Origin: Blautia sp.
Lineage (GTDB): Bacteria > Bacillota > Clostridia > Lachnospirales > Lachnospiraceae
DNA length: 64,000 nt
Assembly: GCA_023667395.1 (NCBI GenBank)
Contig: JAMPAC010000003.1
Span: 14,972 to 78,971 of the forward strand
Reading direction: 5' to 3'
The notes below the pieces were generated by a model, which did not search any database, was not told the DNA's origin, and saw nothing but the letters and a program-made list of their open reading frames with translations. This document shows positions 13,604 through 32,404 of the stretch, piece by piece. Position 1 is the stretch's first letter. Each line of letters begins with the position of its first letter. The translations under genes were made by a program, and so were the position numbers.

Positions 13604-16291
13604 ATGAAATGTCCATATTGTCACGAGGAGCAGGAGGGTTCTGTAAACTTTTGCATGTATTGCGGCAGCGTGCTGCCCAAAGAGGATAGTGAACCGAAAA
13701 AAAGCAGGAAGCCTCTCATCATTATCGCATCAGCCGTGGCAGCTGTTGCGGTAGTGGTGTTTTTTGTGGTTGCGCTCAGTGTTTTTGGAAGGACGGATGA
13801 GGAAAGGCTGCAGCGGCAGTTGGAACTGGGTGAGAGATACCTGAGTGAGATGAACTACGAAAGGGCGTTGGCGGCATATACGGCGGCGATCGAGATCGAA
13901 CCCCAGAACATAGAGGCGACCTGCGGTATGGCGCGCGCATATGCGGGTCTGGACGATTATGAGCAGGCGGAAAATGTGCTGCTCTCCCTGATCGAGACGC
14001 TGGAACAGGATGACTACAGGAAAAAACAGGAAGAACTTTATGCGACGCTGGCTGATATCTATCTGGAAAGCGGTGATTCAGACAGCGCCTGGTCTGCGAT
14101 ACAGCGGGGGACGGACCGTGCCGCCCGGGAAGATATCCTTTTGAACAGTCTGGATCCCATGAAGCGGGATACGGATGGAGACGGGCTCTTTGACGGTACG
14201 GAACTGCAGAACGGTTTTGATCCCAATCTGCGGGATACGGACGGCGACGGCGTACCGGACGGCAGGGAAGAATTTGGGCGTGTTGTGTCCATGCCCTCCG
14301 CAATACCGCAGGAAGACCAGATCTATCCCGTTGTCTGGGCGGAAGGACAGGGCGAGGCATATGGGGATTTTGATGCGGTATATCTGCGGAATAATGTTAC
14401 GCTCAGGGGAATCGGCAGCGTCAGGGGCATTCCCTGTGAATTCAGCGGGCAGAGCGATATGGAACAGGTCAGGATCGGTTTCTGTGTCCCGGAGGCATTG
14501 GCATCGGATACTTCCGGAAATCTCCAGGTTGCAGGTTATGATTATGAACAGAACAGGCTGGTTCTCCATGATACGTCCATAGAGAGCGCTGATGACGGTT
14601 CCGTCCTGGTTTTATCGGATACGGCGGAAGCGGGGACATACATGCTGGTAGACTGGGAACGCCTGAAAAGGGATACGGATGCGACGGAATTTTCCAGTAT
14701 CGTTGAATCAGGCAAGGCGGATGTGGTCTTCGTGATCGATACCACCGGCTCCATGAGTGGGCCGATCAGCAATGTGGAAGAAAACATTGTGGACTTTTCC
14801 CAATATCTGGCTGACCTGGGTGTGGATGTCCGCGTGGGCATTGTGGAGTACAAGGATATTTACGAGGATGGCAGCGGCAGTACGGTTGACCATGGATTTT
14901 ACTATGATCTGGATGAATTTAGAAGGGTGCTTGGAAATTTCAGGATCGATGGCGGCGGGGATGAGTATGAGACGGCAGTGGATGCGCTGGATGTCATGGC
15001 GGATATGGATTTTAGGAGCGGCGTGAATAAATTTGCCATTCTGGTGTCGGATACTGCTTATAAGGAAGGGACACAAAGCAATGCCGGTTATACCATGGAA
15101 CAGATGATCGGAACATTGGAATCCCAGAATATTTGTACAAGTGTTGTGACGAATTATTATCATTTTGATGAGTACAGAAAGCTTACATCCCGCACGAACG
15201 GAGAACTGTGTGATATTGATACGGATTTTGCTACATCGCTTCGCGGATTGATGGACAAGATGGGGACTATGGTGAACGAGGGAACTTGGGTGCGTCTGAC
15301 CAATGGCTCCGTGGTATGTCTGAACGAGGATCCTACGCTCAACAATACTTCCATAGACACAGACGGGGACGGTATCCCGGATCTGATGGAATTGGGGGAA
15401 ACGATCACGGTAAGTTATCGGAGCAGCCTGTCAGGGGAGGAGGTTGCCTTTGAGGCATACACATTCCAGTCCAACCCTGCCCTTGCTGATTCTGATGGGG
15501 ATGGCCTTGCGGATGACGTGGACGCGCGTCCGGTGCAGTGTGATATGGAAGCGTCCGCACTGGGCGTTCCCGGAACCTATTTAATGGTCGATACTGCGGA
15601 TGGAGGAAGCTCATATGGCGTGACAGGGGAGACGGCCATGAATTCCGGAATGGCTGCGATGGAGAATATGCTGTTATACCTGCAAAAGTATACGGGAAAT
15701 TTCTGGCTGACGGGATTTGATCCGACGAGGGAGAGTTATGCGCTGTCGGAGGTCCGGGATATGGCGGATGATCTGGAAAATATCCTTGCGTCACAGGATT
15801 TGCTGGTCATGGAAACGGAACCGGATCTGGAAAGTACGTTCCAGAAATCCAAAAAGCTGCTGAAGATCATAAAGCAATTGTATCGTGAAGCCGGGGTGGA
15901 AGAAAACGGATGTATCCGCGGCGGGAATATGGAACAATGCCTGTCTTTCTGTCTGGGTGGCATCATGACCTCTTATTACATGCCCTTTGGGGAATATTCG
16001 GAGGGAGAGATTTATCAGAGGATCTGCCAGGATATTGAACGGGGTTACCCCGTCATGCTGCAGACGGGTCTGGCCGGCAATGTGGAGTTGTTTGACAGTT
16101 CCGACCTGTCCGGTTCCTCAGTCCCGCTGGGAAGCATGGAGTGGCTGACCATCACAGGCTATGAACGCAATGGCATTGAGGGGACGATCGTGCTGGAAGT
16201 CCTCTATGACGGTGGGATGTATTACCTTGATTTCCGGCGGCTTATGGATGTGGATGCCCTGCTGGGCGGTATCGTGGGGATTGATTCGTAA
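13604..16291 (+). CDS. Membrane protein with zinc ribbon, TM helix, TPR, thrombospondin-type-3-like Ca-binding repeats and a vWA domain
   Basis: 895 aa. CPYC..CMYCG ribbon, TM helix (IIIASAVAAVAVVVFFVVALSVF), TPR-like segment, DTDGDG(L/V) repeats, and a vWA MIDAS motif (VVFVIDTTGSMSG). Confidence 0.75.
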   Translation: MKCPYCHEEQEGSVNFCMYCGSVLPKEDSEPKKSRKPLIIIASAVAAVAVVVFFVVALSVFGRTDEERLQRQLELGERYLSEMNYERALAAYTAAIEIEPQNIEATCGMARAYAGLDDYEQAENVLLSLIETLEQDDYRKKQEELYATLADIYLESGDSDSAWSAIQRGTDRAAREDILLNSLDPMKRDTDGDGLFDGTELQNGFDPNLRDTDGDGVPDGREEFGRVVSMPSAIPQEDQIYPVVWAEGQGEAYGDFDAVYLRNNVTLRGIGSVRGIPCEFSGQSDMEQVRIGFCVPEALASDTSGNLQVAGYDYEQNRLVLHDTSIESADDGSVLVLSDTAEAGTYMLVDWERLKRDTDATEFSSIVESGKADVVFVIDTTGSMSGPISNVEENIVDFSQYLADLGVDVRVGIVEYKDIYEDGSGSTVDHGFYYDLDEFRRVLGNFRIDGGGDEYETAVDALDVMADMDFRSGVNKFAILVSDTAYKEGTQSNAGYTMEQMIGTLESQNICTSVVTNYYHFDEYRKLTSRTNGELCDIDTDFATSLRGLMDKMGTMVNEGTWVRLTNGSVVCLNEDPTLNNTSIDTDGDGIPDLMELGETITVSYRSSLSGEEVAFEAYTFQSNPALADSDGDGLADDVDARPVQCDMEASALGVPGTYLMVDTADGGSSYGVTGETAMNSGMAAMENMLLYLQKYTGNFWLTGFDPTRESYALSEVRDMADDLENILASQDLLVMETEPDLESTFQKSKKLLKIIKQLYREAGVEENGCIRGGNMEQCLSFCLGGIMTSYYMPFGEYSEGEIYQRICQDIERGYPVMLQTGLAGNVELFDSSDLSGSSVPLGSMEWLTITGYERNGIEGTIVLEVLYDGGMYYLDFRRLMDVDALLGGIVGIDS

Positions 16292-16368
16292 ATCATCGGC
16301 ATGATTTCGTGTTTTGCCAAAGAAGTGATGATGGCGGCAAAATGGTCTGCCATGGAAGGAAATACACT

Positions 16369-18651
16369 ATGAATTTGCAGGGAACATATACGGATATTGT
16401 GGAGATCGGTTCGGGCGGCGGCGGTACCGTCTTCCGGGCATTCCATGTGCGCATGGAGAAATATGTGGTTCTCAAGAAGATCCATGACAATATCAAAGAT
16501 AATGTGGATATCCAGGGGGAACTGAATATCCTGAAAAATCTGCGTCACGAATATCTGCCGACGGTGTTGGATTTTATCCAGGACGAGGGTTCTGTTTATA
16601 CGGTAATGGACTATATTCCCGGGGAATCGTTTGAGAATCTCCTGAACCGGGGAATACGTTTTACCCAGGCGCAGGTGAAAAAATATGCCGAACAGCTGGG
16701 GAAGGTGCTTGCTTATCTGCATGGCAAGACCCCGTCCATTGTACATGGCGATATCAAACCGGCGAATCTCATGCTGACGCCGGAAGACAATATCTGCCTG
16801 ATCGATTTCAATATTTCCCAGCTGCAGAATGGTGTCCTGAATCGAAATATGGGGTATACGCCCGGATATGCCTCCCCGGAGCAGGTGCGTATCGTATTGA
16901 TGCTGCAGCAGTATTATGCGGGGATGGCATCTTCGCAGAATGTAAACGCCGGGAGTGGTACTGTGCTGTTGGGGGCGGACGGAGCGCCGGTGCAGAACGC
17001 AGCCGCCGGGAGTGGTACGGTGCTGCTGGGGGCGGACGGAGTGCCTGTGCAGAACGTGAGTGCCGGGAGTGGTACTGTGTTGCTGGGGGCGGACGGAGCG
17101 CCTGTGCAGAACGCAGCTGCCGGGAGCGGGACGGTGCTGCTGGGGGCGGAAAGTGTGCCCGTGCAGCCCGGACAGCAGTGGGTGATGCCTGCCCTTTCGG
17201 AGAAGATGGATGTGCGTTCGGACATTTACAGTGCGGGAGCCACCCTGTATGCCATTTTCAGTGGAACGATCCCCAATGCGGATTTCTCCCAGATCATGCC
17301 AATTGAACGCCTGATGCCCAATTGTTCGGAGGGACTTGCCCGGCTGATCGATACCAGCATGCAGTATTACCTGGACGACCGGTTCCAGAGCGCTGCGGAA
17401 TTTCTTAAGGCAGTGGCGGATATCGACAAGGTTGATAAACGGTACAAACATCTGGTGCTGCGCCAGAACCTGACAGCCGTGGGATGCATTTTGGGGGCGG
17501 CGGTCTGTTCCATCATCGCCATCCTGGGATGGCAGCAGATGGGGATGGAACAGGCGGCTTCTTACAATGTGCTGATAGACCGGATGGAGGAACTGCGCGG
17601 GGAAGACGGGCAGGAGGAACAGTTGGAGGATCTTTACATGGAGGCAGTTGCCGCTTTCCCGGAACAGGCGGATGCCTATTACCAAAAGGCTGCCAGTCTC
17701 TATGAAAACCGTGATTACGAGGGACTGGAACGTTTTATCGAAAGGGAAGTCCTGGATCATACGGGAAGTTTCTCTGACGAGGAGACGGCAGCATTCTATT
17801 TTCTGCTGGCTAATGCCTGCCTGGAACTGGATGATCTGGATGACGCGCTGACCTACTACCGCACGGCAGTCAGATATAATGCCCATGACAGCACATACTA
17901 TTCCGATTATGCCATTGCACTGGCCAGGTCCGGCGATCTGGAGAAAGCCTGGGAGATCCTGGAATCCGCAGAAGAAAAGGGAGTGTCCAATGACAGGATA
18001 TTGCTTGCCCGGGGGGAGATTGCCTCCAGGCAGGGAAACCGGGAGGAGGCAGCGGAATGCTTTGCCCATTGTATTGCGGAAACGAAAGATACTTATGTAA
18101 TGCTCCGGGCTTATATCATGTGGGGCAGATTGTATGACGATACGGATGAAGCAGGACTGTTACAGAAAGCGGCAATCCTCACAGAGGGACTGGAGAAAGT
18201 AGAAGACACGGACCGCGCCATGGTTCTGGAGCAGCTGGCCCAGAGTTATATCGACCTGGGAACATTGACCATGAACAACGATTATAATATGCAGGCGATC
18301 TCCTGCCTGCAGGAAATTGCGGACAGGGGATGGGACAGCTATGTGACCCACAGTAACATCGGCGTCCTGTACCAGGCGGTTGGAAACTATGAACTGGCGC
18401 TGCAGGAATTTTCCGATATGCTGGAGTTTTATGGGGAAGATTATCGGACTTATAAGAGGTTGGCTTTCCTGGAGGCAAGGATCCAGATGGCACGGGAAAA
18501 ATCTGACAGGGACTACAGTCTGTTTGTGGATTACTATGATAAAGCGCGCCAGCTGTTTGCAGACAGCAACGTACAGGCGGATTCCGACATGGAAATGCAG
18601 ATGTTGGAAACGGCGTATGAGGAACTGGAAGCGGGCAATTGGCTGCCTTAG
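16369..18651 (+). CDS. Hanks-type Ser/Thr protein kinase with TM helix and C-terminal TPR domain
   Basis: ATG 16369 with GGAAGGA SD. G-loop GSGGGGTV, VLKK lysine, catalytic loop HGDIKPAN, DFN, SPE and DIYSAG. TM helix LTAVGCILGAAVCSIIAILGW, then about 380 aa of TPR-like repeats. Confidence 0.85.
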   Translation: MNLQGTYTDIVEIGSGGGGTVFRAFHVRMEKYVVLKKIHDNIKDNVDIQGELNILKNLRHEYLPTVLDFIQDEGSVYTVMDYIPGESFENLLNRGIRFTQAQVKKYAEQLGKVLAYLHGKTPSIVHGDIKPANLMLTPEDNICLIDFNISQLQNGVLNRNMGYTPGYASPEQVRIVLMLQQYYAGMASSQNVNAGSGTVLLGADGAPVQNAAAGSGTVLLGADGVPVQNVSAGSGTVLLGADGAPVQNAAAGSGTVLLGAESVPVQPGQQWVMPALSEKMDVRSDIYSAGATLYAIFSGTIPNADFSQIMPIERLMPNCSEGLARLIDTSMQYYLDDRFQSAAEFLKAVADIDKVDKRYKHLVLRQNLTAVGCILGAAVCSIIAILGWQQMGMEQAASYNVLIDRMEELRGEDGQEEQLEDLYMEAVAAFPEQADAYYQKAASLYENRDYEGLERFIEREVLDHTGSFSDEETAAFYFLLANACLELDDLDDALTYYRTAVRYNAHDSTYYSDYAIALARSGDLEKAWEILESAEEKGVSNDRILLARGEIASRQGNREEAAECFAHCIAETKDTYVMLRAYIMWGRLYDDTDEAGLLQKAAILTEGLEKVEDTDRAMVLEQLAQSYIDLGTLTMNNDYNMQAISCLQEIADRGWDSYVTHSNIGVLYQAVGNYELALQEFSDMLEFYGEDYRTYKRLAFLEARIQMAREKSDRDYSLFVDYYDKARQLFADSNVQADSDMEMQMLETAYEELEAGNWLP
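16948..17175 (+). repeat. 57-bp in-frame tandem repeat, 4 copies, inside the kinase domain
   Basis: Encodes AGSGTVLLGADG(A/V)PVQN(AA/VS) four times, between the SPE motif (subdomain VIII) and the DIYSAG motif (subdomain IX). Confidence 0.9.
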
Positions 18652-18665
18652 GAACGGAGGATGAA

Positions 18666-18806
18666 ATGACGGGCGGAACATTAATGTTTTATGGAGGCAT
18701 TGCGGGGTGTATCCTGTTTCTGCTGCTGCTGGTGATCGTGCTGGCAACGGCGGGAAAGAGCAGGCGCAGACTGCTGAACAGGATACAGAAGGAGGGCGAG
18801 TTATGA
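18666..18806 (+). CDS. Unlisted 46-aa single-pass membrane micro-protein, translationally coupled to essC
   Basis: MTGGTLMFYGGIAGCILFLLLLVIVLATAGKSRRRLLNRIQKEGEL. GGAGG SD at 18654-18658. Its TGA (18804-18806) overlaps the essC ATG (18803-18805) as ATGA. It is below the 60-aa cutoff of the ORF track. Confidence 0.6.
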   Translation: MTGGTLMFYGGIAGCILFLLLLVIVLATAGKSRRRLLNRIQKEGEL

Positions 18807-21800
18807 GTATTGTCATATCTGCCTATGCGCAGGCGGCATTTTGCGAGTTCCTGCTGCCCGCGGTAAACAACGCGGATGAGGAGATTGAATTACAGAAAGG
18901 AATCTTCGCCCTGCCTGAGGACGTGATCCTGCGCCTGGAAGTGGTGGAAAAGCAATGGTTCCTGCGGGAGACGGAACAATATACTTTTTCCAGGCAGAAA
19001 GGGGAGCAGGGCGGTCCGCTGAGGGATGGGGATATTTTCAACGTTTCTGAAAAGCGGGGCAACAGGATCTCCCTGATCGTGCGGGAAACGGAAGTGGCGT
19101 TTTCCGTATTCCGCAAGTATGATATTACGGCCTTGCAGGGTCTGACCATAGGAAACGAGCCGGACAATCAGATCATCTATCAGTCCCAGGGACTGGTTTC
19201 CGGCCACCATGCCGTCCTGCAGCGCACTCCCCAGGGATTCTGCGTGCAGGATAAAAGTTCCAACGGTACCTTTGTGAACGGCAGGAAAGTGAATGGCTCA
19301 CAGGAACTGCGGATTGGGGACTGCATCAATATTTTCGGGCTGAAGCTGGTATATCTGGGCAGCCTGATCGCCATATATGCCCCTGCGGAAAACGAGTGCG
19401 TGGTGTCGGCCGCTATCCCGGGATATGTGCAGCCCGCCATTCCGGTACAGAAAGAGGCGGGCAAACCCCAAAAGGACAGGAAATTTTTCCATCGCGCTCC
19501 CAGAAATTATTTAAACCTGGAGACGGAGACCATAGAGATCGAGGCGCCGCCTGCACCCAGGGAGGAGAATAAGCGTCCCCTCTGGATGGTGATCGGGCCT
19601 TCCTTCACCATGATGATCCCCATGCTGCTGGGCAGCATGATGGCGATCCTGAATGCGCGTTCTTCCGGCAGCAATTCAGGCCTGTATATGTATACCGGTA
19701 TCATTACGGCAGCGGGAAGCGCGCTGATCGGTATCTTCTGGGCGCTGACCAATCTCCGTTATAATAAGAAAGAGATCCAGCGGGGTGAGGAGACAAGGTT
19801 CCAGGCCTATGGGGACTATTTGATAAAGCGGGCGGATTTTATCAGGGAAAAGTATGAAAAGAGCCGTAATATTTTACATACCATGTATCCTGCGGCGAGT
19901 GTGGTGACAAATTACGGCGAGGGCAGCGCCGCATTATGGAACAGGAATCCCAAGCATGCTGATTTCATGCTGCAGAGGCTGGGGGTCGGCAATATCCCCT
20001 TTCAGATGGGGATCAATATACCGAAAGAGCGTTTTACCCTGAAAAGCGATGAACTTTCCGATAAGCCCCGGATGATTAAGGAGGAGTACAGTACCCTTTA
20101 CGATGTGCCCGTGGGTGTGGATCTGCTTTCCCATAAACTGATCGGCGTGGTGGGCGGCTCCAAGAAGCAGGGCGCTTTCGACATCGTGAGGCTGTTGACG
20201 GCGCAGATCGCGGCAAACAACTGTTACACGGATGTGAAACTGGTTTATATTTATGACAGGAATGAGGATGAGGAGGACTGGGAATATGCCCGCTGGCTGC
20301 CCCACGTGTGGAGCGAGGACAAGAAGACGCGTTTTGTGGCCAGCGACAAGTCAGAGGCCAGCGACGTGTTGTTTGAACTGACGGGCGTATTGCGTATGCG
20401 TTCCGAGGACGAGCAGCTGAAGAAATGCACGCTGCCCAAGCCCTATTATGTGCTGGTGGTTTCGGACGTGGCATTGCTGGAAGGCGAACTGATCACAAAA
20501 TATATCTACGGCGGGGAGGCGTGCTGCGGACTGACGACCCTGATCCTGGCCGAGAGCAGGGAACAGCTTCCCAATGAGTGTGAATACCTGCTGCAGAAAG
20601 ACGGGGAGTTCTGCGGTATCTATAACCTGACGGATGAGGAGCATCTGGAAGTCCGCTTTGATACCGTGTCCCCGGAGCAGATGGAATGTTTTGCCAGAAG
20701 GCTGCTTCCCATTGAAGTGCGGGAGATGGAAAAAGGGCGTGACATTCCCAACAGCCTTACTTTCTTCGAGATGCACAACGTACAGCGGCTCGAGGAACTG
20801 GATGTGGAGGAACGCTGGCGCAAGAACCGTACTTATGAGAACATGAGGGCGCTTTTGGGTGTAAAGGGGGGCGGGGCTCCCTGTTACCTGGACGTGCATG
20901 AGAAATATCACGGCCCCCACGGGCTGGTGGCGGGTACCACAGGTTCCGGAAAATCCGAGACCCTGCAGACTTATATGCTGTCCATGGCCATTAATTTCAG
21001 TCCTGACGATATCGGATATTTCATCATCGACTATAAGGGAGGCGGCATGGCGGGGCTGTTTGACGGGCTGCCCCATATGATCGGATCCATCTCCAACCTG
21101 TCCGGCAACCAGGTGCGCCGGGCGATGGTCTCCATTAAGAGCGAAAACCGCAGACGGCAGAGGATCTTCAATGAGAACAATGTAAATAACATCAACCTTT
21201 ACACGAAGCTTTATAAAAACGGGGAGGCGACCATACCCATTCCCCATATGTTCATTATCATAGACGAGTTTGCGGAATTGAAGCGGGAAGAGCCCGAGTT
21301 CATGAAAGAACTGATTTCCGTGGCGCAGGTGGGACGAAGCCTGGGCGTGCATCTGATCCTTGCCACCCAGAAACCCAGCGGCACGGTGGACGATAATATC
21401 TGGAGCAATGCAAAATTCCGTCTCTGCCTGCGGGTACAGGACAGACAGGACAGCAATGACATGCTGCACAAGCCGGATGCCGCTTATATCACGCAGGCAG
21501 GGCGCGGATATCTGCAGGTGGGCAATGACGAGGTTTATGAACTGTTCCAGTCCGGCTACAGCGGAGCCACATATGAGGAGAACGGGGCGAATGTGAAGAC
21601 GGAGATCGCTTCCATGATCTCCCTGCCCGGCAAGGCGGCATTGGTGGGCAACAGCCTGAAGAGCAGGCAGCAGAGCCAGAGGCGTAACGCCTGGGTGCAG
21701 AAACTGCTGCAGACAGTGAGGGCTGCAGCGGATGAAATGCAGCTTCCGGTTCCGGCTTATGCGGCGGCGCCGGATCGAATCGATCTGTTTTATGCGCAGG

Positions 21801-23779: not shown

Positions 23780-23782
23780 GCC

Positions 23783-24517: not shown

Positions 24518-25161
24518 TCATTCTGCCGCAGCGGGAGTTCCAGGTGCTTGCAGCGGCATGGGGAATCGGGGAAATATTCGGGGTATGTCCCAGGGAAGAT
24601 ATGAGCGGTCTGGGACGGTCAGACCTACTGTATATTGTTCATGAAATGGCGCAGAAGAATATTTTGAAATTCGATGGCGCCAGATATGAGGTGCAGGAAC
24701 CCTATCGTTCCGTCCTGTGTTCCATCAGGGAAGCGGAACAGATCCTGGCGGTGGAGGATAGGGACGGATACGCATCAGTCTTTTATTTTGGCAGGGCGCT
24801 GGTCTGCCTGGAGGAAAGCGTGCAGGATGAGGACGCGGTACGCATCGGGATTTACGATCCGGGAAAATGCCGCAGTGTGCTGGAGGAGAAAGGGTTTCTG
24901 CCGCAGCCTTGCCCGGAGGGGAACCTGGCCGTCCTGCAGACCGAGGATGAGGCGGGGGAATGGCTGGAAAACGTTTCCGCAGGGGGCAGTGTGCCATATG
25001 TGTTCCGTTATCGGATCTTTGACAGCCTTAAGAGCCTGCAGGCGGAATATGATCTGGTGGAGGGCCCTTTTAACGATTGGATCGTGCATAAGAGCGGGGA
25101 AGAATTGCAGATTTCCCGCTATGACGGACAGCGTTTATATGAAAAACTTGTAATAAAATAG
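24505..25161 (+). CDS. Hypothetical soluble protein, T7SS-locus associated
   Basis: 218 aa from ATG 24505, overlapping the LytTR gene stop by 13 nt. No TM helix or motif recognised. Confidence 0.6.
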   Translation: MEELIILPQREFQVLAAAWGIGEIFGVCPREDMSGLGRSDLLYIVHEMAQKNILKFDGARYEVQEPYRSVLCSIREAEQILAVEDRDGYASVFYFGRALVCLEESVQDEDAVRIGIYDPGKCRSVLEEKGFLPQPCPEGNLAVLQTEDEAGEWLENVSAGGSVPYVFRYRIFDSLKSLQAEYDLVEGPFNDWIVHKSGEELQISRYDGQRLYEKLVIK

Positions 25162-25192: not shown

Positions 25193-25456
25193 ATGGAGGG
25201 GATGACTTTGATCCTGGTGGATGTGGTGGCGCCCAGTGTGGACAAAACATATGATTTTAAATTGGATGAAAATGCGCCGATCGCGCTGGTGGTGGAAGAG
25301 ATCACAGAAATGATCAGCCGCAGGGAACATTGCGAGATGATAGGCGATAAGGAGGATGTGCTGCTGTGCCGCTATGACGGGCAGGTAGTGCTGAACAGGC
25401 TTTCCTCCCTGAAAGACAGCGGAATAACGGACGGAACCCGTTTATTGCTGCTGTGA
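25193..25456 (+). CDS. esaB: YukD/EsaB-like ubiquitin-fold T7SS protein
   Basis: 87 aa. Beta-grasp-like pattern (LILVDV...KTYDFKLDENAPI...) with a C-terminal GITDGTRLLLL. Size and position are typical of EsaB/YukD. Confidence 0.6.
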   Translation: MEGMTLILVDVVAPSVDKTYDFKLDENAPIALVVEEITEMISRREHCEMIGDKEDVLLCRYDGQVVLNRLSSLKDSGITDGTRLLLL

Positions 25457-25608: not shown

Positions 25609-25968
25609 ATGTTTCATACGAATGTCAGGGCGATGGATGGCGCCGCAGATGGATTGGAGCGACAACTGAGAAAGCTGAAGCAGGCAACAGAGGCTGTCCG
25701 GGATGTACGGAGCAGGCTGAACGGGTTGTCCGGCATGGACAATGTTCGCCGGAACCTGGACAGCGAGCTTTCCGGCATGGAGCAGGAGCAAAGGAATCTT
25801 CTCTCGCTGCTTGCAGCGCTCAGAATGGCAGCGCGCTGTTATGCGGATTGTGAACGGCGGATCATCGATTATGCGGAGTGCGGAAGACGTCAGGCGGCCG
25901 TGTCTGCGTGGTACATGGTAAACCTGAGCGGCGAAGTGAGGAATCTGGCGGAACAAATAATCTTTTAG
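25609..25968 (+). CDS. Small helical protein, first gene of the WXG array
   Basis: 119 aa from ATG 25609 (AAAGGAG SD 25597-25603). Predicted coiled/helical with no WXG motif. Confidence 0.6.
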   Translation: MFHTNVRAMDGAADGLERQLRKLKQATEAVRDVRSRLNGLSGMDNVRRNLDSELSGMEQEQRNLLSLLAALRMAARCYADCERRIIDYAECGRRQAAVSAWYMVNLSGEVRNLAEQIIF

Positions 25969-25977: not shown

Positions 25978-26292
25978 ATGGTTATTGGTATGGCGGATAA
26001 TATTGAGACAAATACAGGCATGATGGAGCGGGACGTAGACAGCCTGAAAGAGGCGTTGAACCGTGTGCGTCAGGATATGAAGGGGATGTTTGACGCAGTC
26101 ATGGAACTGAACGGCATGTGGAGCGGGCAGGCGAACGAAGCTTTCAACCGCCAGTTTCAGCTGGACAGTGAACTGTTTGCGTCCTTATGTGAAGAGGCGG
26201 AGGGCATTATTGAAAGCATGGATAACGCAAAGGATGCCTATAACAGGTGCGAGGCTGAGGTTAGCCAGGAGATCGGGCGGATCCGGCTTTAA
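25978..26292 (+). CDS. WXG100-family protein (WSG)
   Basis: About 100 aa. Central motif MWSGQANEAF in a helix-turn-helix hairpin. An alternative start is ATG 25990. Confidence 0.75.
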   Translation: MVIGMADNIETNTGMMERDVDSLKEALNRVRQDMKGMFDAVMELNGMWSGQANEAFNRQFQLDSELFASLCEEAEGIIESMDNAKDAYNRCEAEVSQEIGRIRL

Positions 26293-26335: not shown

Positions 26336-26689
26336 ATGGCAGAGTGGAACACGGATACCATGACGGGCTTTGGCGGTTCGGTCAGCTTTCACGTGGAGCC
26401 GGAAATGCTGAAAAGCAAGAGCGCGGAGGTGTCCCGCATTGTGAGCCGGATGCGGGAACATTTTGGGGAATTGAAGAATTTGATGGAGAAGACCGCCGGT
26501 TACTGGATCGGTGAAGCGGGTGATAAGCACCGGCAGATGTATAAGGATATTGAGGACAATGTGGAAGAGATGCTGAAGCGGCTGGGAGAATATCCGGTGG
26601 ATCTTCTGGCGATCGCTAAAAATTATACGGATGTGGAACTATCCATAGAAGAGGATATTGAGACATTGCCGGACGATATCATTGTGTAA
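26336..26689 (+). CDS. WXG100-family protein (WIG) with a C-terminal DDIIV tail
   Basis: 117 aa from ATG 26336 (AGGAGG SD). Motif YWIGEAGDKH. Ends ...EEDIETLPDDIIV. Confidence 0.75.
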   Translation: MAEWNTDTMTGFGGSVSFHVEPEMLKSKSAEVSRIVSRMREHFGELKNLMEKTAGYWIGEAGDKHRQMYKDIEDNVEEMLKRLGEYPVDLLAIAKNYTDVELSIEEDIETLPDDIIV

Positions 26690-26699: not shown

Positions 26700-27095
26700 A
26701 TGGCGACAAGATTTTCCATACAGATGGATTTTGACAAAGCAAAGAGGCAGGCGGATGAACTGGATGATATTGCCAACGGCTTAGACCGGGAGGCCAACCG
26801 GAGCCTGACGGATACCCTGAATGCGCTGGGGAATGACTGGCGGGGAGAAAATGCGGATCAGTATATCAGGAAAGGCTTTACCCTGAAAGAGGAGATAAAC
26901 GGGACGGCAAAGTCGCTGCACCAGGCTGCTTCCACCATCCGCACGATAGCGAAGCGGATATACGATGTGGAGATGGAAAACCTCAGGATCGCAGAGGAAC
27001 GTCAGCGTGCAGAGGAACAGCGTGCAGCAGAAGAGGCCCGTGCCAGAGCCTATTCCGGCGGCGGTGGAGGCGGCGGGGGCGGAAGAGGCTGGTGA
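26700..27095 (+). CDS. WXG100-like protein (WRG) with a charged helix and poly-Gly tail
   Basis: 131 aa from ATG 26700 (AGGAGGA SD). Motif DWRGENADQY. C-terminus is ...EERQRAEEQRAAEEARARAYSGGGGGGGGGRGW. Confidence 0.7.
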   Translation: MATRFSIQMDFDKAKRQADELDDIANGLDREANRSLTDTLNALGNDWRGENADQYIRKGFTLKEEINGTAKSLHQAASTIRTIAKRIYDVEMENLRIAEERQRAEEQRAAEEARARAYSGGGGGGGGGRGW

Positions 27096-27147: not shown

Positions 27148-27173
27148 ACAATTCATTTTAAGGAGGAAATATC

Positions 27174-27473
27174 ATGGCAGACATTAAAGTAACAAGTTCG
27201 GAGCTGCGTGCTGCAGCATCCAATCTTCAGGAGTACAATTCCAATTTCAAATCCCAGGTGGAGGCGCTGGTAAATTCGGAGGCTGTCCTCGGCGGGCAGT
27301 GGCAGGGTGATGCGAACACCGCATTCCACAAGGCTTTCATGAATGACAAGGCATTCATGGATAAGTTTGCCGCAGAGATCGAGAAGTATTGTGCGGCATT
27401 GGAGACCGCCGCTGCCAAGTATGATGCAAGAGAGGCGGCAAACGTGGAGATTGCAACCCAGAGAAAGTATTGA
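27174..27473 (+). CDS. esxA: EsxA-like WXG100 protein
   Basis: 99 aa. MADIKVTSSELRAAASNL...GQWQGDANTAFHKAF is the canonical Firmicute EsxA pattern. It has its own promoter and a strong SD. Confidence 0.85.
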   Translation: MADIKVTSSELRAAASNLQEYNSNFKSQVEALVNSEAVLGGQWQGDANTAFHKAFMNDKAFMDKFAAEIEKYCAALETAAAKYDAREAANVEIATQRKY

Positions 27474-27516
27474 TGATCGAAAAATCATGAAAAATAGGTA
27501 AAGGAGACATAAGGAT

Positions 27517-27831
27517 ATGGAAGGAACATTGAATGTGAGCAGCGAGAAGCTGGTCAGCACAGCGAACGAGTTTAACGGTATCATGAATCAGGTAAAGTCC
27601 ATCACCGGCTATATGTGTGATGTGGTAAACGGCCTCAGCGGCAAATGGGAGGGGGACGCATCCGCCAAATATTCCCAGAAGTTCAACATGCTGCAGGATG
27701 ATATCCAGAAGATGGCGAACATGATCAATGAGCATGTTACGGACCTGAATGAGATGGCGGCGAATTACGAGGCAGGCGAGCAGGAGATCATCAACGAAGA
27801 GGAGAGCCTGGCGGGCGACATTATCGTTTAG
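27517..27831 (+). CDS. WXG100-family protein (WEG) with a C-terminal GDIIV tail
   Basis: 104 aa. Motif GKWEGDASAKY. Ends ...NEEESLAGDIIV. Confidence 0.75.
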   Translation: MEGTLNVSSEKLVSTANEFNGIMNQVKSITGYMCDVVNGLSGKWEGDASAKYSQKFNMLQDDIQKMANMINEHVTDLNEMAANYEAGEQEIINEEESLAGDIIV

Positions 27832-27980
27832 GAATCGTTTTCCGGCATGCGCCCGGCGCTTATTTGCGCTGATACGAAAGAAATTGCTGCAATGACGCGC
27901 CGGGGCGCTGCTGGATACCCTGAAAGGGCGCCGCGAAAGCGCCCGGTGAAGAATGCGGGAGCGGACAGAGGGAGTGGGAT

Positions 27981-29294
27981 ATGTCTGAATTTAAAGTAAA
28001 GATTTCCGGAATGGATCAAAGAGCAGCGGAAGAACAGCGGATAGCGGGAACACTGAATTCTCTGGAATCCCAGATCCGCTCTGTAAAACGCGCGCTGTCC
28101 GGCAGCGTGGGCAACCGTGAAAGCCTGGGACACAGCCTGGGACTACTGGCGGATAGAGTGAACCGTCATGAGCAGGATCTGAAAACCATGCGCTCCGTGC
28201 TGGTCAATGTGAAAAATAATTATGAAAAGACGGAACGCCGCATCTGCGGTTACGCCAATGACCATCCGATTACGATCGACGATATATGGAACGCAGTCAC
28301 TACCGTAGGCAAAGGCCTGGCCATCAACGCGATGTTCCCGGGCGGCGGACTGGCGTGGCTGACGGGTACGATCCTGAAAGACGAGGAGTGGTCGGGAAAA
28401 AGTGAATGGTTGAAAATGGATTATAAGGATCGTGAACTGAAAAAGATTCTGGAAAAAAAGAAAAAGTCTTTGTCGGACGAAAAGTGGGAATATGACAAAG
28501 ACAAAGGTGAATGGGTAAAGAAAGAAGAGAAAAAGGACGAAAAGAAAAAGACCAAGGAAGAAGAAAAGAAACTGAATCGAAAAGCTTTGATGGAGAGCAT
28601 TAACATCTGGTCGGGAAGCCTGTCCAAGGAGGGAAGTCTCCTGCATCTGGGGAAAGACGGCGATGTGGAGACCGAATGGGGAAATTACACATACTCTGCA
28701 GATATCATGAAAGCGGAAGCAACGGCCTCCGGCCATGCAGACCTGGGAGGGTTTGGCGGCGAGGTGGGAGTTGCCCTGACTGCATTCACGGCGGGGGCAG
28801 GGGTTCAGCTGGGAAGCGACATGCTTGGCGCCCATGCGGAAGGCCAGGTGGATGTCCTCAAGGCAGAGGCTTCGGTTGGCGGAGAGTTTGGCGTTTGGGA
28901 TGAAAACGGGGATTTCAATCCCCAGGTGGGAGTTTCGGCGAAAATGGAGGCAATCGCGGCGGAGGTTTCCGGAAAGGTCGGGGTCGATATCGCGGGAACG
29001 GAAATCAATGCGAAAGGATCCCTGAATTTCGGAATCGGAGCCCATGCGGATATCGGTTTTAACGATGGCAAATTTAAATTTGACGTGGGAGCCAGCCTGG
29101 GTGTAGGCGGCAGCGTGTCCCTGGAAGTGGATGTGTCGGGAACCGTGGATAAAGTGGTAGAGCATGCCCAGGATATCGGAAATGCGGTAGTGGATGCATA
29201 TGACACCACCATGGGTTATCTGTCCGATGCAGCCAACGCGGTGGGCGAGGGATTCAAATCGGGCCTTTCCGCTTTTACGGGATTGTTTAAATAG
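27981..29294 (+). CDS. Candidate T7SS effector with helical N-terminus, Lys/Glu-rich linker and Gly-rich beta-repeat C-terminus
   Basis: 437 aa. The first ~100 aa are helical. KKILEKKKKSL...KKEEKKDEKKKTKEEEKK linker. The C-terminal ~200 aa carries alternating G/A/V repeats (GAHAEGQVDVLKAEASVGGEFGV..., GVDIAGTEINAKGSLNFGIGAHADIGF...). Confidence 0.55.
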   Translation: MSEFKVKISGMDQRAAEEQRIAGTLNSLESQIRSVKRALSGSVGNRESLGHSLGLLADRVNRHEQDLKTMRSVLVNVKNNYEKTERRICGYANDHPITIDDIWNAVTTVGKGLAINAMFPGGGLAWLTGTILKDEEWSGKSEWLKMDYKDRELKKILEKKKKSLSDEKWEYDKDKGEWVKKEEKKDEKKKTKEEEKKLNRKALMESINIWSGSLSKEGSLLHLGKDGDVETEWGNYTYSADIMKAEATASGHADLGGFGGEVGVALTAFTAGAGVQLGSDMLGAHAEGQVDVLKAEASVGGEFGVWDENGDFNPQVGVSAKMEAIAAEVSGKVGVDIAGTEINAKGSLNFGIGAHADIGFNDGKFKFDVGASLGVGGSVSLEVDVSGTVDKVVEHAQDIGNAVVDAYDTTMGYLSDAANAVGEGFKSGLSAFTGLFK

Positions 29295-29365
29295 TGTCTG
29301 CCTGTGGACATATGGCTCCAGGTGTGTTTAGATAGAATGGGAAACAGCAGAAACGGAGGTTTGTT

Positions 29366-29692
29366 ATGAGAAGAGAATTATTGCCGATCGGTTCGGTGGT
29401 CAGGCTGAAAGACGTGGACAGATCCATGATGATATGCGGCTTTGCTCCCACCGGACCGGCGAAACCGGGTTATGTATATGATTATTCAGGGTTCCTCTAT
29501 CCGGAAGGATATGGGGAGACCCTGGAAGTGTATCAGTTCGATAACGAGCAGATAGAGCTGGTACAGGCGATCGGCTATCAGGACAGGGAGACTTTCCGCT
29601 ATATGGAAGCGCTGCAGGAAACGATCATGGATGTGAAAGAAAAAACGGCGGCTCAATTTGCGGAAAACAATGGCGCCGGGTCGAAAGAATAG
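29366..29692 (+). CDS. DUF4176-family protein
   Basis: 108 aa. LPIGSVVRLKDVDRSMMICGF...YDYSGFLYPEG matches the DUF4176 signature that is common in T7SSb loci. Confidence 0.7.
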   Translation: MRRELLPIGSVVRLKDVDRSMMICGFAPTGPAKPGYVYDYSGFLYPEGYGETLEVYQFDNEQIELVQAIGYQDRETFRYMEALQETIMDVKEKTAAQFAENNGAGSKE

Positions 29693-29706
29693 AGGAGGGA
29701 TCTGTT

Positions 29707-29985
29707 ATGTTTGAGAGGACATTGCCCATAGGTTCGGTTGTCTTGTTAAAGGGCGCAAATAAGCGTCTGATGATCATAGGCTATTGCAAATACAAGGCCG
29801 GTGATGATGAGACGGTTTATGATTATGCCGGATGCGTTTATCCGGAGGGATTCATGAGTCCGGAAACGACGGCGCTGTTCAACCATGAACAGATTGATAA
29901 AATATTTGCGCTGGGGTATCAGAACCAGCAGCGGTTTGAGTTTGAGCCGAAACTCCGGGAAGCGATCGAACGCGTGAAAGGGTAA
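29707..29985 (+). CDS. DUF4176-family protein (paralogue)
   Basis: 92 aa. LPIGSVVLLKGANKRLMIIGY...YDYAGCVYPEG. Confidence 0.7.
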   Translation: MFERTLPIGSVVLLKGANKRLMIIGYCKYKAGDDETVYDYAGCVYPEGFMSPETTALFNHEQIDKIFALGYQNQQRFEFEPKLREAIERVKG

Positions 29986-29989
29986 GGAT

Positions 29990-31621
29990 ATGACAAAATA
30001 CATAAGAAAAATAATGACCGGCGTTGCCGGTCTGTTATTGTTGTGTTCGATGGCAGTGCAGGCGGCTGAAGGTCCTGTGGCGGTGGAACATTATACGGCC
30101 GGGGATGAGGCCGTACTGTATATCAGGGGGGTAGAGGGGGAAGCCGGGGCCGGTTCCTACCAGATCGGAACCACACCCTGCGAGATCACCAGCCTGACGC
30201 CCGTGAAAGAGACGGAGGAGGGGATTAAGACCCTGATCCTCTGGGACAATTCGCTGTCCGTGATGAACAGGTGCGGCGACAGGGTGAAAGCGATCCTGAC
30301 GGATGTGGTCGCAAACCGCGCCGCAGGGGAAGAGTTCTCCATTGCGACCATTGACAGGGAGATCACCTGCCTGTCCGATTATACGGATGATTATGCCGCG
30401 TTAAAGCAGGTCATCGAGAATGTCTCCGGTGAAAATAAGGATGCATATATTATTGAAAATCTATACCAGGCGATTGAAAGCCTGAATGCCATGGAGGATG
30501 TGAGTTATAAGCGGATCATTGTGATCTCCGACGGAATGGATGCCACAGAGATCGGTTATTCCAAAAGCGAACTGGATACGCTGATCTCCCAGACGCCTTA
30601 TCCGGTCTACACGATCGGTATCCTGGATGGGAAGCATCAGGAAGAACTGCAGAACATGTTTGCGATCTCCCGGACCACGGGCGTGGAATACTTTTATTTG
30701 AATGAGATCGAGGATGATATGACGGTGGTGCAGACCCTGAGCAGGGATTATTCCGTATGGCAGGTCAAGGCTGCCATACCTGCTGAAATACAGGATGGCA
30801 GCGTGCAGAATTCCCAGCTGGTCTTAAGCGTGGGGGGAAGCGACGTCACTGTCCAGAGCCAGGTGACGCTGCCTTTTGCCACAAAGACGGAGACGGAAGA
30901 AGTTCCCGAACCGACGGAGGAGCCCTCTGCGGAGGAACCCTCCCCAGAGCCGGATCTTCCGGTTGAGGAGCCGGAACCGGAGGAAGAAAACGCCGGGGTG
31001 GACAGGATGGTATTATGGCTGGCCGCGGGTGGCGCTGCGGTTCTCCTGGTGATCCTGCTGATCATTGTGATGGTGACACGAAGAAAGAAACAGAAGCCGC
31101 CTGCAGGAAATGACTATGCGAAGCTGGATTCCTCCATCAGGAATGAAAGGCGTGGCAGTGGCGCGTCTGTGCCCTCAGGAACCGGGGAGGGACCTGACAG
31201 GAATGGGGCGGTGATCGGCGCGGGGGCATTGACAGGGCAGCCGCCTGCGGCGGTTCCCACAGGACAGCATAAGACGCATATGTTGTTTGGGAATCAGGCT
31301 CCGGCAGGATCCGTTCCGGGAATGCACAGGATCCTGCTGGTAAATATAAGGGATGCCGTCCAGACGTATCAGTGCAGCATTGCGGATAAGGTGATCGTGG
31401 GCAGGAATTCCTTTTTCAGTAACTTGGTGCTGGAAGATGATGCCGTTTCCGAGAAACACTGTGAAATAGAACTGCTCAACGGTAAGGTCTATATAAAGGA
31501 TCTGGGATCTTCCAATGGCACATATGTGGATGGCATCCAGATCAGCGCCAACAATGTGGAAGTGCAGTCAGGCGCCATATTACGGCTGGGGAGGCATGAG
31601 TACAGGCTGACCATAGAGTAA
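29990..31621 (+). CDS. Signal peptide, extracellular vWA-like domain, TM helix and cytoplasmic FHA domain protein
   Basis: 543 aa. Signal-like N-terminus, vWA-like block (TLILWDNSLS...IIVISDG), acidic Pro/Glu linker, TM helix (MVLWLAAGGAAVLLVILLIIVMV), FHA (VIVGRN...VSEKHCEIELLNGKVYIKDLGSSNGTYVDG). Confidence 0.75.
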   Translation: MTKYIRKIMTGVAGLLLLCSMAVQAAEGPVAVEHYTAGDEAVLYIRGVEGEAGAGSYQIGTTPCEITSLTPVKETEEGIKTLILWDNSLSVMNRCGDRVKAILTDVVANRAAGEEFSIATIDREITCLSDYTDDYAALKQVIENVSGENKDAYIIENLYQAIESLNAMEDVSYKRIIVISDGMDATEIGYSKSELDTLISQTPYPVYTIGILDGKHQEELQNMFAISRTTGVEYFYLNEIEDDMTVVQTLSRDYSVWQVKAAIPAEIQDGSVQNSQLVLSVGGSDVTVQSQVTLPFATKTETEEVPEPTEEPSAEEPSPEPDLPVEEPEPEEENAGVDRMVLWLAAGGAAVLLVILLIIVMVTRRKKQKPPAGNDYAKLDSSIRNERRGSGASVPSGTGEGPDRNGAVIGAGALTGQPPAAVPTGQHKTHMLFGNQAPAGSVPGMHRILLVNIRDAVQTYQCSIADKVIVGRNSFFSNLVLEDDAVSEKHCEIELLNGKVYIKDLGSSNGTYVDGIQISANNVEVQSGAILRLGRHEYRLTIE

Positions 31622-31654
31622 ACGGGGCATTATGGGAAAAGGTCAGGAAGAAGG

Positions 31655-32404
31655 ATGGCTGGTAAAAGGGAAATTCTGTATTGTGCGAAAACGGACAGGG
31701 GACTGTGCCGTAATGTGAATCAGGACGCAGCGGCTGCGTTTGTACAGGGGGATCTGGGGCTCTTTGTGTTGTCTGACGGTATGGGAGGGCATAGCAGGGG
31801 AGAACTGGCAAGCGCGTGGATCGTCAAAGGATTTGAAGCGTATTGGAATAACCTGCTTATGGCGCCGTTGCCGGACTTTCAGGACTTGGTGACGCAGATC
31901 CGGCAGCAGATATGCCTGTTAAACGGTCAGATCCTGGAGTATTATAACCAGGGACAGGTATGCGGCGCCACGGCAGTGGTATTGCTGATATCGGGCGGCT
32001 GTTATGCGGTATTCTCCGTGGGCGACAGTCGGATATATACCTGCGCAGGCGGCAGGTGCAGTATCCTGACGGTGGATGATATCTGGGACACACTGCCCTC
32101 CACCATAAGCGCTTTTACTCCGGAACAGATACTTCTCCACGAGAATCACGGGAAGCTTGTGCAGGCGGTGGGGACGCAGCCCCAGGTCAATATCCATGTG
32201 AGAACGGATAAACAGAAGCGGGGGCAGGTCTTCCTGCTGTGCAGCGACGGGCTTTTCAAATTCTGCGATGAGGGATGGCTCAGAAAGAAACTGCGGGGCG
32301 TGAAAAGCGAGGCTTCCCTGCAGCAGGCGATGGAGACCTGTTTCCAGGAAGTATACCGCCATGGGGCGGGAGACAATGTGACCGCCATCCTGGTGAGGAC
32401 GTGA
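31655..32404 (+). CDS. PP2C-family Ser/Thr phosphatase
   Basis: 249 aa. RNVNQDA, SDGMGGH, LLCSDGL and GAGDNVTAILV motifs. Confidence 0.85.
   Translation: MAGKREILYCAKTDRGLCRNVNQDAAAAFVQGDLGLFVLSDGMGGHSRGELASAWIVKGFEAYWNNLLMAPLPDFQDLVTQIRQQICLLNGQILEYYNQGQVCGATAVVLLISGGCYAVFSVGDSRIYTCAGGRCSILTVDDIWDTLPSTISAFTPEQILLHENHGKLVQAVGTQPQVNIHVRTDKQKRGQVFLLCSDGLFKFCDEGWLRKKLRGVKSEASLQQAMETCFQEVYRHGAGDNVTAILVRT

Follow-up and report, generated by a model that had tools for sequence, protein, structure and literature searches.

The subject of this work is a type VII secretion system (T7SS) locus of Blautia sp., located at positions 13604-32404 of a 64,000-nt stretch of contig JAMPAC010000003.1 (the window). 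All genes of the locus are on the plus strand and, based on the list of open reading frames (ORFs) and their translations, they are packed nearly gap-free (Table 1). The intergenic gaps are no longer than 150 nt, which is too short for a further gene to be hidden between the ORFs. Scans for promoters and terminators over the locus showed no enrichment, and the operon is not defined by them. The flanking genes are ordinary chromosomal ones, which encode ClpC, RadA, MatE, PurL, Lgt, CarAB, a class A penicillin-binding protein and MgtE. A preliminary description of this DNA had listed domains and coordinates for the same region, and in Pfam and NCBIfam searches every listed element was recovered with strong profile scores. 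These are the EssC motor with its FHA-like N-terminus, two transmembrane (TM) helices and three P-loops (borne out by the TIGR03928, FtsK_SpoIIIE and FHA matches), and the YukD-like ORF, five WXG ORFs, two DUF4176 ORFs and 437-amino acid (aa) ORF, all of which are present and, except for the last, matched by profiles. The same holds for an upstream zinc ribbon (ZnR)-TM-TPR-vWA protein and an apparently intact Hanks kinase, whose catalytic residues are kept, and for a vWA-TM-FHA protein and a PP2C downstream as well as a LytTR gene directly after essC. Two genes had been overlooked, the EspG-like gene at 24505-25161 and a sixth WXG-like gene at 25609-25968.

Table 1. Features of the Blautia sp. 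T7SS locus (positions in the 64,000-nt window)
Feature	Position	Strand	Remarks
ZnR-TM-TPR-TSP3-vWA protein	13604-16291	+	895 aa; Pfam TPR_19, VWA, Zn_Ribbon_1, TSP3_bac
Bitopic Hanks Ser/Thr kinase (Pkinase-TM-TPR)	16369-18651	+	Predicted cytoplasmic kinase domain and extracellular TPR; layout as in TsjD
57-nt tandem repeat within the kinase gene	16948-17166	+	Tandem Repeats Finder (TRF): period 57, 3.6 copies, 87% matches
EssC/TsxC motor ATPase	18803-23779	+	1658 aa; FHA region, two TM helices, three P-loop ATPase domains
LytTR DNA-binding regulator, TsiN-like	23783-24517	+	LytTR E 8e-23; atypical receiver-like N-terminal domain (tentative)
EspG-like chaperone, TsxG-like (predicted)	24505-25161	+	218 aa; fold-based assignment
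YukD/EsaB-like ubiquitin-fold protein (TsxB)	25193-25456	+	PF08817 E 2.3e-8
WXG-like 119-aa helical protein	25609-25968	+	L-S-G in place of W-x-G
WXG1	25978-26292	+	WXG100 (PF06013) E 1e-9
WXG2	26336-26689	+	WXG100 (PF06013) E 3e-9
WXG3	26700-27095	+	WXG100 (PF06013) E 2e-4; W-R-G motif, conserved orthologues
WXG4	27174-27473	+	WXG100 (PF06013) E 1.5e-13
WXG5	27517-27831	+	WXG100 (PF06013) E 4e-12
437-aa probable substrate	27981-29294	+	N-terminal WXG/LXG-like hairpin, charged linker, C-terminal beta-meander
DUF4176 gene 1	29366-29692	+	One of two PF13780 matches
DUF4176 gene 2	29707-29985	+	One of two PF13780 matches
Signal peptide-vWA-TM-FHA protein	29990-31621	+	FHA E 6e-17; VWA_2 E 8e-7
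PP2C (PPM) Ser/Thr phosphatase, Stp1/IreP type, TsxF-like	31655-32404	+	PP2C_2 E 2e-13

The general hallmarks of a T7SS, i.e., a multi-domain membrane ATPase of the FtsK/SpoIIIE type and locus-encoded WXG100 proteins, are both present. EssC, whose ORF is open from 18707, scores 1105 bits against TIGR03928, the NCBI EssC model with a cutoff of 778, and matches the Pfam families FtsK_SpoIIIE (E 4.5e-50) and FHA (E 4.7e-14). It contains two hydrophobic segments near aa 264-318, followed by the P-loops GTTGSGKSE (aa 711), VSGKSS (aa 1158) and RSRTGKTN (aa 1445). The YukD-like protein and the FHA-bearing EssC are also features of T7SSb, the Firmicute system whose core consists of EsxA, EsaA, EssA, EsaB and EssB as well as EssC. 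Among the ORFs of the 64-kb window, neither Pfam nor NCBIfam gave a match to YukC/EssB (including TIGR03926), EssA or EsaA/YueB, as the preliminary description had claimed for the locus, and the three were likewise unseen in six Pfam-annotated related loci of 25 kb each. There are no polytopic ORFs in the locus; its membrane proteins are single-pass, except for EssC with its two TM helices. By these searches it is confirmed that the locus encodes a real T7SS without recognisable EsaA, EssA or EssB.

The 218-aa protein encoded downstream of the LytTR gene has no Pfam or NCBIfam match, and its family profile found nothing among the PDB sequences, so that EspG was seen by fold comparison alone. 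The alignment for its model came from word-indexed homologue searches, which gave 6 and then 11 proteins. The AlphaFold2 model built with the 11 homologues has a pLDDT of 85.5 and a pTM of 0.83, and the 12 best Foldseek matches in the PDB are mycobacterial EspG1 and EspG3 structures (E 1.6e-5 to 4e-4, TM-score ~0.6), with the next match at E 0.011. Based on this model, the product is predicted to be EspG-like. The five WXG ORFs include four that pass the Pfam WXG100 cutoff of 27 bits and one, WXG3, that scores 22. Their order is identical in 35 of the 49 representative loci with enough downstream sequence, and this fixed order across the family rules out that the five genes are effector-specific partners. 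The 119-aa WXG-like gene is always the first after yukD, and an iterative search from its product converges on the same ORF set as the WXG seeds. Positional orthologues of 117-120 aa are found in the related loci L001, L002, L005, L006 and L007, and an orthologue also in L008. WXG4 and WXG5 (27174-27831) show weak matches of the PPE/EspC type (PF00823, E 5e-5 and 6e-6), which together with the EspG-like chaperone suggest a mycobacterial-style EspG/PPE chaperone-substrate logic in a Firmicute. The system had been called a stripped-down T7SS. This view was not upheld, since the EspG-like chaperone and the sixth WXG-like hairpin make it a differently equipped system: it carries the chaperone, six conserved WXG-like genes in fixed order and a substrate/DUF4176 cassette.

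This cassette is built around the 437-aa protein. In its AlphaFold2 model an N-terminal hairpin (aa 8-88) has a pLDDT above 90, and seven long antiparallel strands (aa 208-384, pLDDT 80-90) form a meander that resembles a beta-barrel. With this model as query, Foldseek found nothing significant in the PDB; its weak matches are mostly barrels of the outer membrane (PagL, NspA, OpcA and OmpW), and a pore-forming or membrane-inserting role of the modelled protein can be taken as a lead. The family of its C-domain is found in 26 loci including the window, and in 23 of these the gene is at most 125 nt from a DUF4176 gene. In a library of 1.84 billion proteins the protein family comprises 543 clusters. 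In P0272 (879 aa), a distant member of the family, an Mbeg1-like lipase domain is found N-terminal to the shared C-domain. The two DUF4176 ORFs match PF13780 with E-values of 3e-21 and 8e-29, and DUF4176 is reported as a stabiliser of LXG toxins (PMC12482557). We suggest that the 437-aa protein is probably a conserved T7SS substrate and that the DUF4176 proteins are its probable stabilising partners.

The signalling genes are found on both sides of this secretion set. The kinase matches Pkinase (E 9.3e-36) and TPR families in Pfam, and alignment to solved kinases shows that the catalytic Lys, the helix-C Glu, the Asp, the Asn and the Mg-binding Asp are all kept. It is of the non-RD type (HGD, DFN, SPE), and its TM helix covers aa 388-406, numbered on the 780-aa ORF that opens at 16309. 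The orthologue in L008 is 58% identical. That this protein is a homologue of the pseudokinase EssB is ruled out by the intact catalytic residues and the lack of a YukC match. The tandem repeat in its gene encodes four 19-aa units, AGSGTVLLGADGAPVQN (AGSGTVLLGADGAPVQNxx), which are placed in the kinase domain after subdomain VIII and before subdomain IX. A Thr-x-x-Leu spacing is among the common preferences of FHA domains, and the GTVLL units can be regarded as candidate pT-x-x-L (pT, phosphothreonine) docking sites. The repeat copy number may vary between strains.

The PP2C keeps all the metal-binding motifs of the PPM family (NQD, DGMGG, GDSR, SDG and GDN). It matches NF033484, the Stp1/IreP model, with E 5.6e-40 and a score of 137 bits, which is below the equivalog cutoff of 230 bits. 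Judging by their motifs, both the kinase and the PP2C look active. The vWA-TM-FHA protein is composed of a signal peptide, an extracellular vWA domain, a beta-rich region, a Pro/Glu linker, a TM helix, a cytoplasmic linker and a canonical FHA domain, with hydrophobic segments at aa 8-26 and 344-362. Its vWA domain has a perfect metal ion-dependent adhesion site (MIDAS; DNSLS86), and its FHA domain has the complete phosphothreonine pocket (GR471, SEKH487, NG509), which is retained as GR/SxxH/NG in most of its orthologues. A topology prediction from hydrophobicity and the distribution of charges puts the TPR and vWA domains outside and the kinase, FHA and ZnR domains inside the cell, and the vWA-TM-FHA protein is by this topology predicted to be a single-chain outside-to-inside adaptor.

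The first protein of the locus has a single TM helix (aa 38-56), which is predicted to be N-in, an ectodomain of ~840 aa and the vWA motif DTTGS. Bacterial TSP3 (Ca-binding) repeats are found on both sides of the vWA domain, and the last ~250 residues (window 15500-16291) have no family match. It had been described as a sensor that is part of the signalling module. This is unsupported or goes too far: in iterative profile searches over 87 other loci, neither its vWA nor its C-terminal domain had a homologue, and just the generic ZnR-TM class recurs. Proteins with an N-terminal ZnR, a single TM helix and a variable ectodomain are found in 18 of 88 loci including the window, two of them with a vWA domain. 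By sequence, the protein appears to be an accessory, lineage-specific member of this recurrent class.

The LytTR gene is located directly 3' of essC in all five Pfam-annotated loci that possess it. The similarity of its N-terminal domain to receiver domains is weak (hhalign E 0.018), and we tentatively describe it as an atypical receiver. This half of the protein (window 23783-24200) is receiver-like and is without the acidic pair; in the same weak alignment, the column of the receiver phospho-acceptor Asp is occupied by His in the window and by Asp in the orthologues. The related loci with Pfam annotation showed no gene for a cognate histidine kinase.

The EssC proteins form a family of ~1660 aa, for which 1061 matches at E <=1e-20 were obtained; among the matches listed, 120 are 51-85% identical, and the named ones all belong to unclassified Clostridia or to Lachnospiraceae, with Acetatifactor (83%) followed by Lacrimispora, Anaeromicropila, Ventrimonas and Brotaphodocola. 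With the EssC alignment as its seed, a scan of metagenomes added at least 470 confirmed relatives. For the gene neighbourhoods, six loci with precomputed Pfam annotation (25 kb each) and 80 metagenome loci were screened by iterative profile searches seeded from the window proteins and dereplicated at 90% EssC identity. Linkage was counted within 10 kb of essC in the 26 dereplicated loci that have at least 9 kb on both sides of it. The preliminary description had stated that a lack of synteny between essC and the kinase, PP2C and vWA genes would speak against its reading; the linkage was found to be conserved. YukD is present in 26 of the 26 representative loci, extra FHA proteins in 24, LytTR in 22 and the EspG-like protein in 21. 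A Hanks kinase is found in 20 and PP2C in 15 (one or the other in 22, both in 13), the vWA-TM-FHA protein in 11, and kinase, PP2C and vWA-TM-FHA protein together in 8. In total, ~1.3 Mb of locus DNA contains 62 kinase ORFs. The block that is conserved across related loci runs essC-LytTR-EspG-like-YukD-119 aa-WXG x5, and in the closest full relative (L008, human gut, EssC 75% identical) the order of the window is kept from the kinase through the PP2C. With the vWA-TM-FHA form in 42% of the loci and the ZnR-TPR-vWA protein in the window only, the signalling set behaves as a variable accessory layer and not as a fixed core.

Some of the variation concerns further genes. A small FHA protein (~180 aa), mostly with a predicted TM helix, is encoded directly upstream of essC in 16 of the 26 loci (e.g., L002 9447-9977 and L006 9395-9988); in the window this place is occupied by the kinase gene. 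Two of the 88 loci, L007 (2123-4122 and 15847-17832) and L022 (3169-5144), carry a DUF6382-FHA protein together with a ParA/TadZ-like ATPase. A search with the ParA/TadZ-like seed from L007 found homologues in these two alone of 88 loci and none in the window. Such genes are TsxJ-like and TsfV/TsiM-like. In L007 a 661-aa FtsK_SpoIIIE gene is also inserted between the LytTR and EspG-like genes. These cases show a mosaic exchange of accessory parts among T7SS subtypes.

The concept of a T7SS that is equipped with kinase, PP2C and FHA proteins is already known from two papers, one of 2024 and one of 2026. In Microlife (2024; PMC11217815), Garrett, Higginson and Palmer defined T7SSc-j, which lack EssB, EsaA and EssA. 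The parts of these systems include membrane kinases (TsxD; the ectodomain of TsjD is of the TPR type), the PP2C TsxF, the separate FHA protein TsxJ, the cytoplasmic vWA protein TscE, the EspG-like TsxG and the LytTR regulator TsiN, and control of T7SS variants by Thr phosphorylation was proposed with an analogy to the type VI secretion system (T6SS; PMC11217815). In a September 2026 preprint on Schaalia, the Esr pathway was described, which adjoins esx genes in 40% of 3502 cases and whose parts are a beta-propeller on the cell surface, MoxR, vWA, a kinase with a phosphatase, and an output protein with FHA (PMC13622651). It was shown experimentally that Esr phosphorylates the FHA protein on Thr and that, in the Esr2 form, post-translational control is exerted over the export of part of the Esx substrates; the pathway is reported as confined to the class Actinomycetes (PMC13622651). 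In our literature search no paper was found that joins type VII secretion, Lachnospiraceae and WXG100, and a look through the supplements of Garrett et al. for organism names, as a check of Lachnospiraceae coverage, found none.

To place the family we used a neighbour-joining tree of EssC with 200 bootstraps, which is only indicative, as each published subtype is represented in it by one partial TsxC sequence, transcribed with reading errors from the supplementary PDF text of PMC11217815. The EssC family is monophyletic in 200 of 200 bootstraps of this tree and has no stable sister, joining TsiC in 5 of 200. Compared with these partial and error-bearing references, the window EssC is 29-36% identical to the Bacillota and Olsenella representatives (TsiC 35%, TsjC 29%, TseC 32%, S. 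aureus EssC 32%), whilst identity within the family is at least 48%. In BLAST against the ten subtype representatives, the highest-scoring one is TsiC (38% over 904 aa, 561 bits).

Comparison of the gene sets gives a mixed picture. The C-N-G-B set of the window resembles T7SSi (Vallitalea), in which EssC also bears an FHA domain whose phosphothreonine motif is poorly conserved and which has the LytTR protein TsiN, the EspG-like TsiG, the YukD-like TsiB and several WXG genes. However, the ParA/MinD-like TsiM with its C-terminal TM helix was not found in the window (a like protein is found in 2 of 88 loci), the WXG genes of T7SSi are variably placed whereas those of the window family are five in fixed order, and the published description of T7SSi mentions neither a kinase nor a PP2C or vWA-FHA protein. 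The kinase, PP2C and ZnR protein of the window resemble T7SSj/T7SSe, which share with it the membrane kinase (TsjD with a TPR/helical ectodomain), the PP2C TsxF, a YukD-like protein, an FHA-bearing EssC and a separate FHA protein (TsxJ). Here the differences are that the window has no ORF with the Ig repeats of the large surface protein TsxI and no DUF6382 match in Pfam, that TsxJ is a cytoplasmic DUF6382-FHA protein whereas the FHA domain of the window comes with a vWA ectodomain and a TM helix, and that the window contains EspG-like and LytTR genes. By its description, TsxK is a ZnR protein with one TM helix and a short cytoplasmic stretch; the window protein has a ZnR and one TM helix at its N-terminus and, in addition, an ectodomain of ~840 aa.

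With T7SSb (S. aureus Ess, B. subtilis Yuk) the window shares the FHA-bearing EssC with two TM helices, EsaB/YukD, WXG100 proteins and LXG-like substrates with small partners and DUF4176, but it has no EssB/YukC, EsaA/YueB or EssA matches, encodes five to six WXG paralogues in its core where T7SSb has one, and adds the EspG-like chaperone, Hanks kinase, PP2C and FHA proteins. Esr-Esx loci also contain vWA, Ser/Thr kinase, phosphatase and FHA proteins beside T7SS genes (in the window, all within 19 kb of essC). Yet, Esr needs a MoxR ATPase, the beta-propeller filament EsrA and the transglutaminase EsrD, none of which appeared in Pfam scans of the window ORFs, and the vWA domains of the window are predicted to be extracellular and fused through a TM helix to FHA or ZnR. 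In the P. aeruginosa H1-T6SS (PpkA/PppA/Fha1) and in the A. tumefaciens T6SS, secretion is switched post-translationally by a Hanks kinase in the membrane together with a PP2C and an FHA protein. PpkA carries a periplasmic vWA domain, so that the same four domain types are involved. The likeness was seen at the level of the generic domains; the machine is unrelated and the envelope diderm, and the vWA domain is on the kinase there and on the FHA protein here. No published subtype combines the T7SSi-like and T7SSj/e-like sets, nor has any a vWA-TM-FHA protein or five ordered WXG genes. Since a distinct EssC clade and a distinct neighbourhood are the criteria of PMC11217815 for a further subtype, the Lachnospiraceae EssC family is probably an undescribed T7SS subtype.

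By sequence, predicted fold and synteny, the locus is a T7SS made up of the EssC motor, YukD, the EspG-like chaperone, six WXG-like proteins, a conserved probable substrate with its DUF4176 partners and the LytTR regulator, in genetic coupling with the bitopic kinase, the FHA adaptor and the PP2C. The explanation that fits these data best is that the locus encodes a functional T7SS of a distinct, Lachnospiraceae-wide subtype, in which single-pass proteins with big ectodomains and cytoplasmic signalling domains, namely the TPR kinase, the vWA-FHA protein and, in the window, the ZnR-TPR-vWA protein, would stand in for EssB, EsaA and EssA, and which would export substrates of the 437-aa type, with their beta-meander C-domain and DUF4176 partners. 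A cue at the cell surface would activate the kinase, and threonines of the kinase itself (possibly those of its four GTVLL units), of EssC or of the vWA-FHA protein's linker would become phosphorylated. These phosphothreonines would be read by the FHA domain that the vWA-FHA protein carries, by which the EssC complex would be assembled or activated, and the cytoplasmic PP2C would reset the switch. In Bacillota, such a system would correspond to the control of the H1-T6SS by PpkA/PppA/Fha1 and to that of Esx by Esr2 in Actinomycetes. We give this post-translational chain, from the kinase cue through reading by the FHA adaptor and activation of EssC to reversal by the PP2C, slightly better than even chances. 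Phosphothreonine gating of assembly or firing is plausible, and what the intact kinase, the PP2C and the FHA pocket indicate is only competence for it. The preliminary description had already drawn such gating from the signalling genes. Its reading is partly supported. The canonical phosphothreonine pocket is on the vWA-TM-FHA protein, and EssC is a doubtful reader; the T7SS without recognisable EsaA, EssA and EssB and the synteny of the signalling genes stood, whilst the stripped-down character and the ZnR sensor were unsupported or overstated, and the idea itself was already in print.

Several points weigh against this mechanism. Canonical FHA domains contact the phosphate through the Arg of their G-R motif. 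In the EssC family alignment S-x-x-H (its Ser and His) and Asn-Gly never vary, but this Arg is replaced family-wide by Asn, Ser, Cys, Ala or Lys, which makes EssC a doubtful phosphothreonine reader. The motif GT[VIL]LL occurs four times in the window kinase, three times in that of L008 and in no other locus kinase, and an insert confined to the window and its closest relative cannot be a general feature. Within 10 kb of essC, 6 of the 26 loci have no kinase and 11 no PP2C; the locus kinases come from several families (TPR, PASTA and others), the vWA-TM-FHA form is present in 42% of the loci, and the ZnR-TPR-vWA protein in the window only. The search for EssB, EsaA and EssA covers 64 kb of the genome, and copies may exist elsewhere. 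The LytTR gene beside essC leaves a transcriptional output equally possible, and the data on this family are those of sequence, predicted fold and conservation.

One other option, which we consider rather unlikely but worth keeping in mind, is that the kinase, PP2C and FHA proteins act on transcription, i.e., that the phosphorylation state is passed, directly or via an FHA protein, to the LytTR regulator, and that this regulator then turns on the operon. The LytTR gene is found in 22 of the 26 loci, directly downstream of essC in the five Pfam-annotated ones that have it, and its atypical receiver-like domain comes with no cognate histidine kinase gene in the Pfam-annotated loci. There are also precedents: the Actinomycete Esr1 acts transcriptionally through a phosphorylated FHA protein (PMC13622651), and a passage of PMC11217815 cites IreK-dependent transcriptional activation of the E. 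faecalis T7SS. Yet, three loci without LytTR (L003, L027 and L078) still carry kinases, PP2C or FHA proteins, and the membrane anchor of the FHA protein and the FHA region of EssC fit a role at the machine itself. The two modes would not be exclusive, judging by the coexistence of Esr1 and Esr2. An improbable option, which is also not exclusive of post-translational control, is that the bitopic kinase and the vWA-TM-FHA protein are mainly structural and replace EssB and EsaA as scaffolds that bind EssC, with little or no phosphorylation. The topology of the kinase is that of EssB, as Garrett et al. remark for TscD (PMC11217815), membrane proteins with FHA domains are near-universal (24 of 26 loci), and T7SSb EssC FHA domains bind the EssB pseudokinase without phosphothreonine (PMC11217815), a mode into which the missing Arg in the window family would fit. 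But in a purely structural role the catalytic residues, the PP2C motifs and the phosphothreonine pocket would not be preserved, as they are here, and a scaffold is hard to match with kinases that are missing from 6 of the 26 loci and belong to different families.

It is very improbable, in our view, that the signalling genes are ordinary cell-envelope genes of the PrkC/Stp type that merely adjoin the secretion genes. Such a chance neighbourhood would agree with the Stp1/IreP model as best match of the PP2C and with the PASTA kinases in some related loci, but the 137-bit score of this PP2C lies under the Stp1 equivalog cutoff, FHA proteins are interleaved with the secretion genes, and a kinase or PP2C is retained within 10 kb in 22 of the 26 loci even though their neighbourhoods are otherwise unrelated and the gene orders differ. 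We see just as little chance of an ordinary T7SSb in which EssB, EsaA and EssA have diverged beyond detection or are encoded in another part of the genome. The EssC does pass the NCBI EssC (T7SSb) model and the search was over 64 kb; against this, no such genes are found in the window or in the six Pfam-annotated 25-kb relatives, the EssC is ~32% identical to that of S. aureus and falls in a separate clade, and an EspG-like chaperone and a LytTR regulator are foreign to the T7SSb core. The boldest form of the phosphothreonine proposal would be an eleventh, unnamed T7SS subtype, widespread in gut Lachnospiraceae, in which an outside-in phosphothreonine switch of vWA-TM-FHA protein, non-RD TPR kinase and PP2C acts on EssC, as a counterpart of Esr-Esx made from different parts, and whose conserved WXG-headed cargo inserts its C-terminal beta-meander into target membranes as a barrel-like pore. 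Taken as one joint claim this is tentative, and we would sooner expect it to fail than to hold.

Lachnospiraceae are among the most abundant commensals of the human and animal gut, and a distinct T7SS subtype found in many gut metagenomes is a plausible mediator of contact-dependent competition or of surface remodelling. The locus also offers a compact test bed for the switching of a T7SS, with one kinase, one phosphatase and one transmembrane FHA adaptor beside the motor, whereas the Actinomycete pathway that was studied experimentally needs many more parts. Current views are not overturned: with the kinase/PP2C/FHA concept in print, the finding is not surprising after the papers of 2024 and 2026.

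Other genes of the window are listed here as separate observations. Upstream of the locus, 10088-13431 encodes an OmpR-type response regulator (10088-10792), a histidine kinase (10785-11963) and then a D-Ala--D-Ser ligase, which with 556 bits exceeds the cutoff of 495 of the NCBI VanG model. It is followed neither by vanXY nor by vanT-like genes, and the next gene is that of the ZnR-vWA protein; the ligase may be an orphan of the vanG type under VanRS-like control. Further upstream, on the minus strand (8889-9548), there is a gene for a PBECR4 nuclease (barnase/EndoU/colicin-like). Just downstream of the locus a 763-aa protein is encoded on the minus strand (33095-35386), whose sole match is a weak N-terminal cyclic-nucleotide-binding domain. 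A second FtsK-family cluster (42452-48892) is located 13 kb downstream of the T7SS. It contains three paralogues with N-terminal rubredoxin-like zinc ribbons of the RCKP type (42452-43522, 43539-44246 and 44289-45281), followed by a 1153-aa protein with a single EccC/FtsK-like ATPase domain (TIGR03924, 81 bits, aa 436-670).

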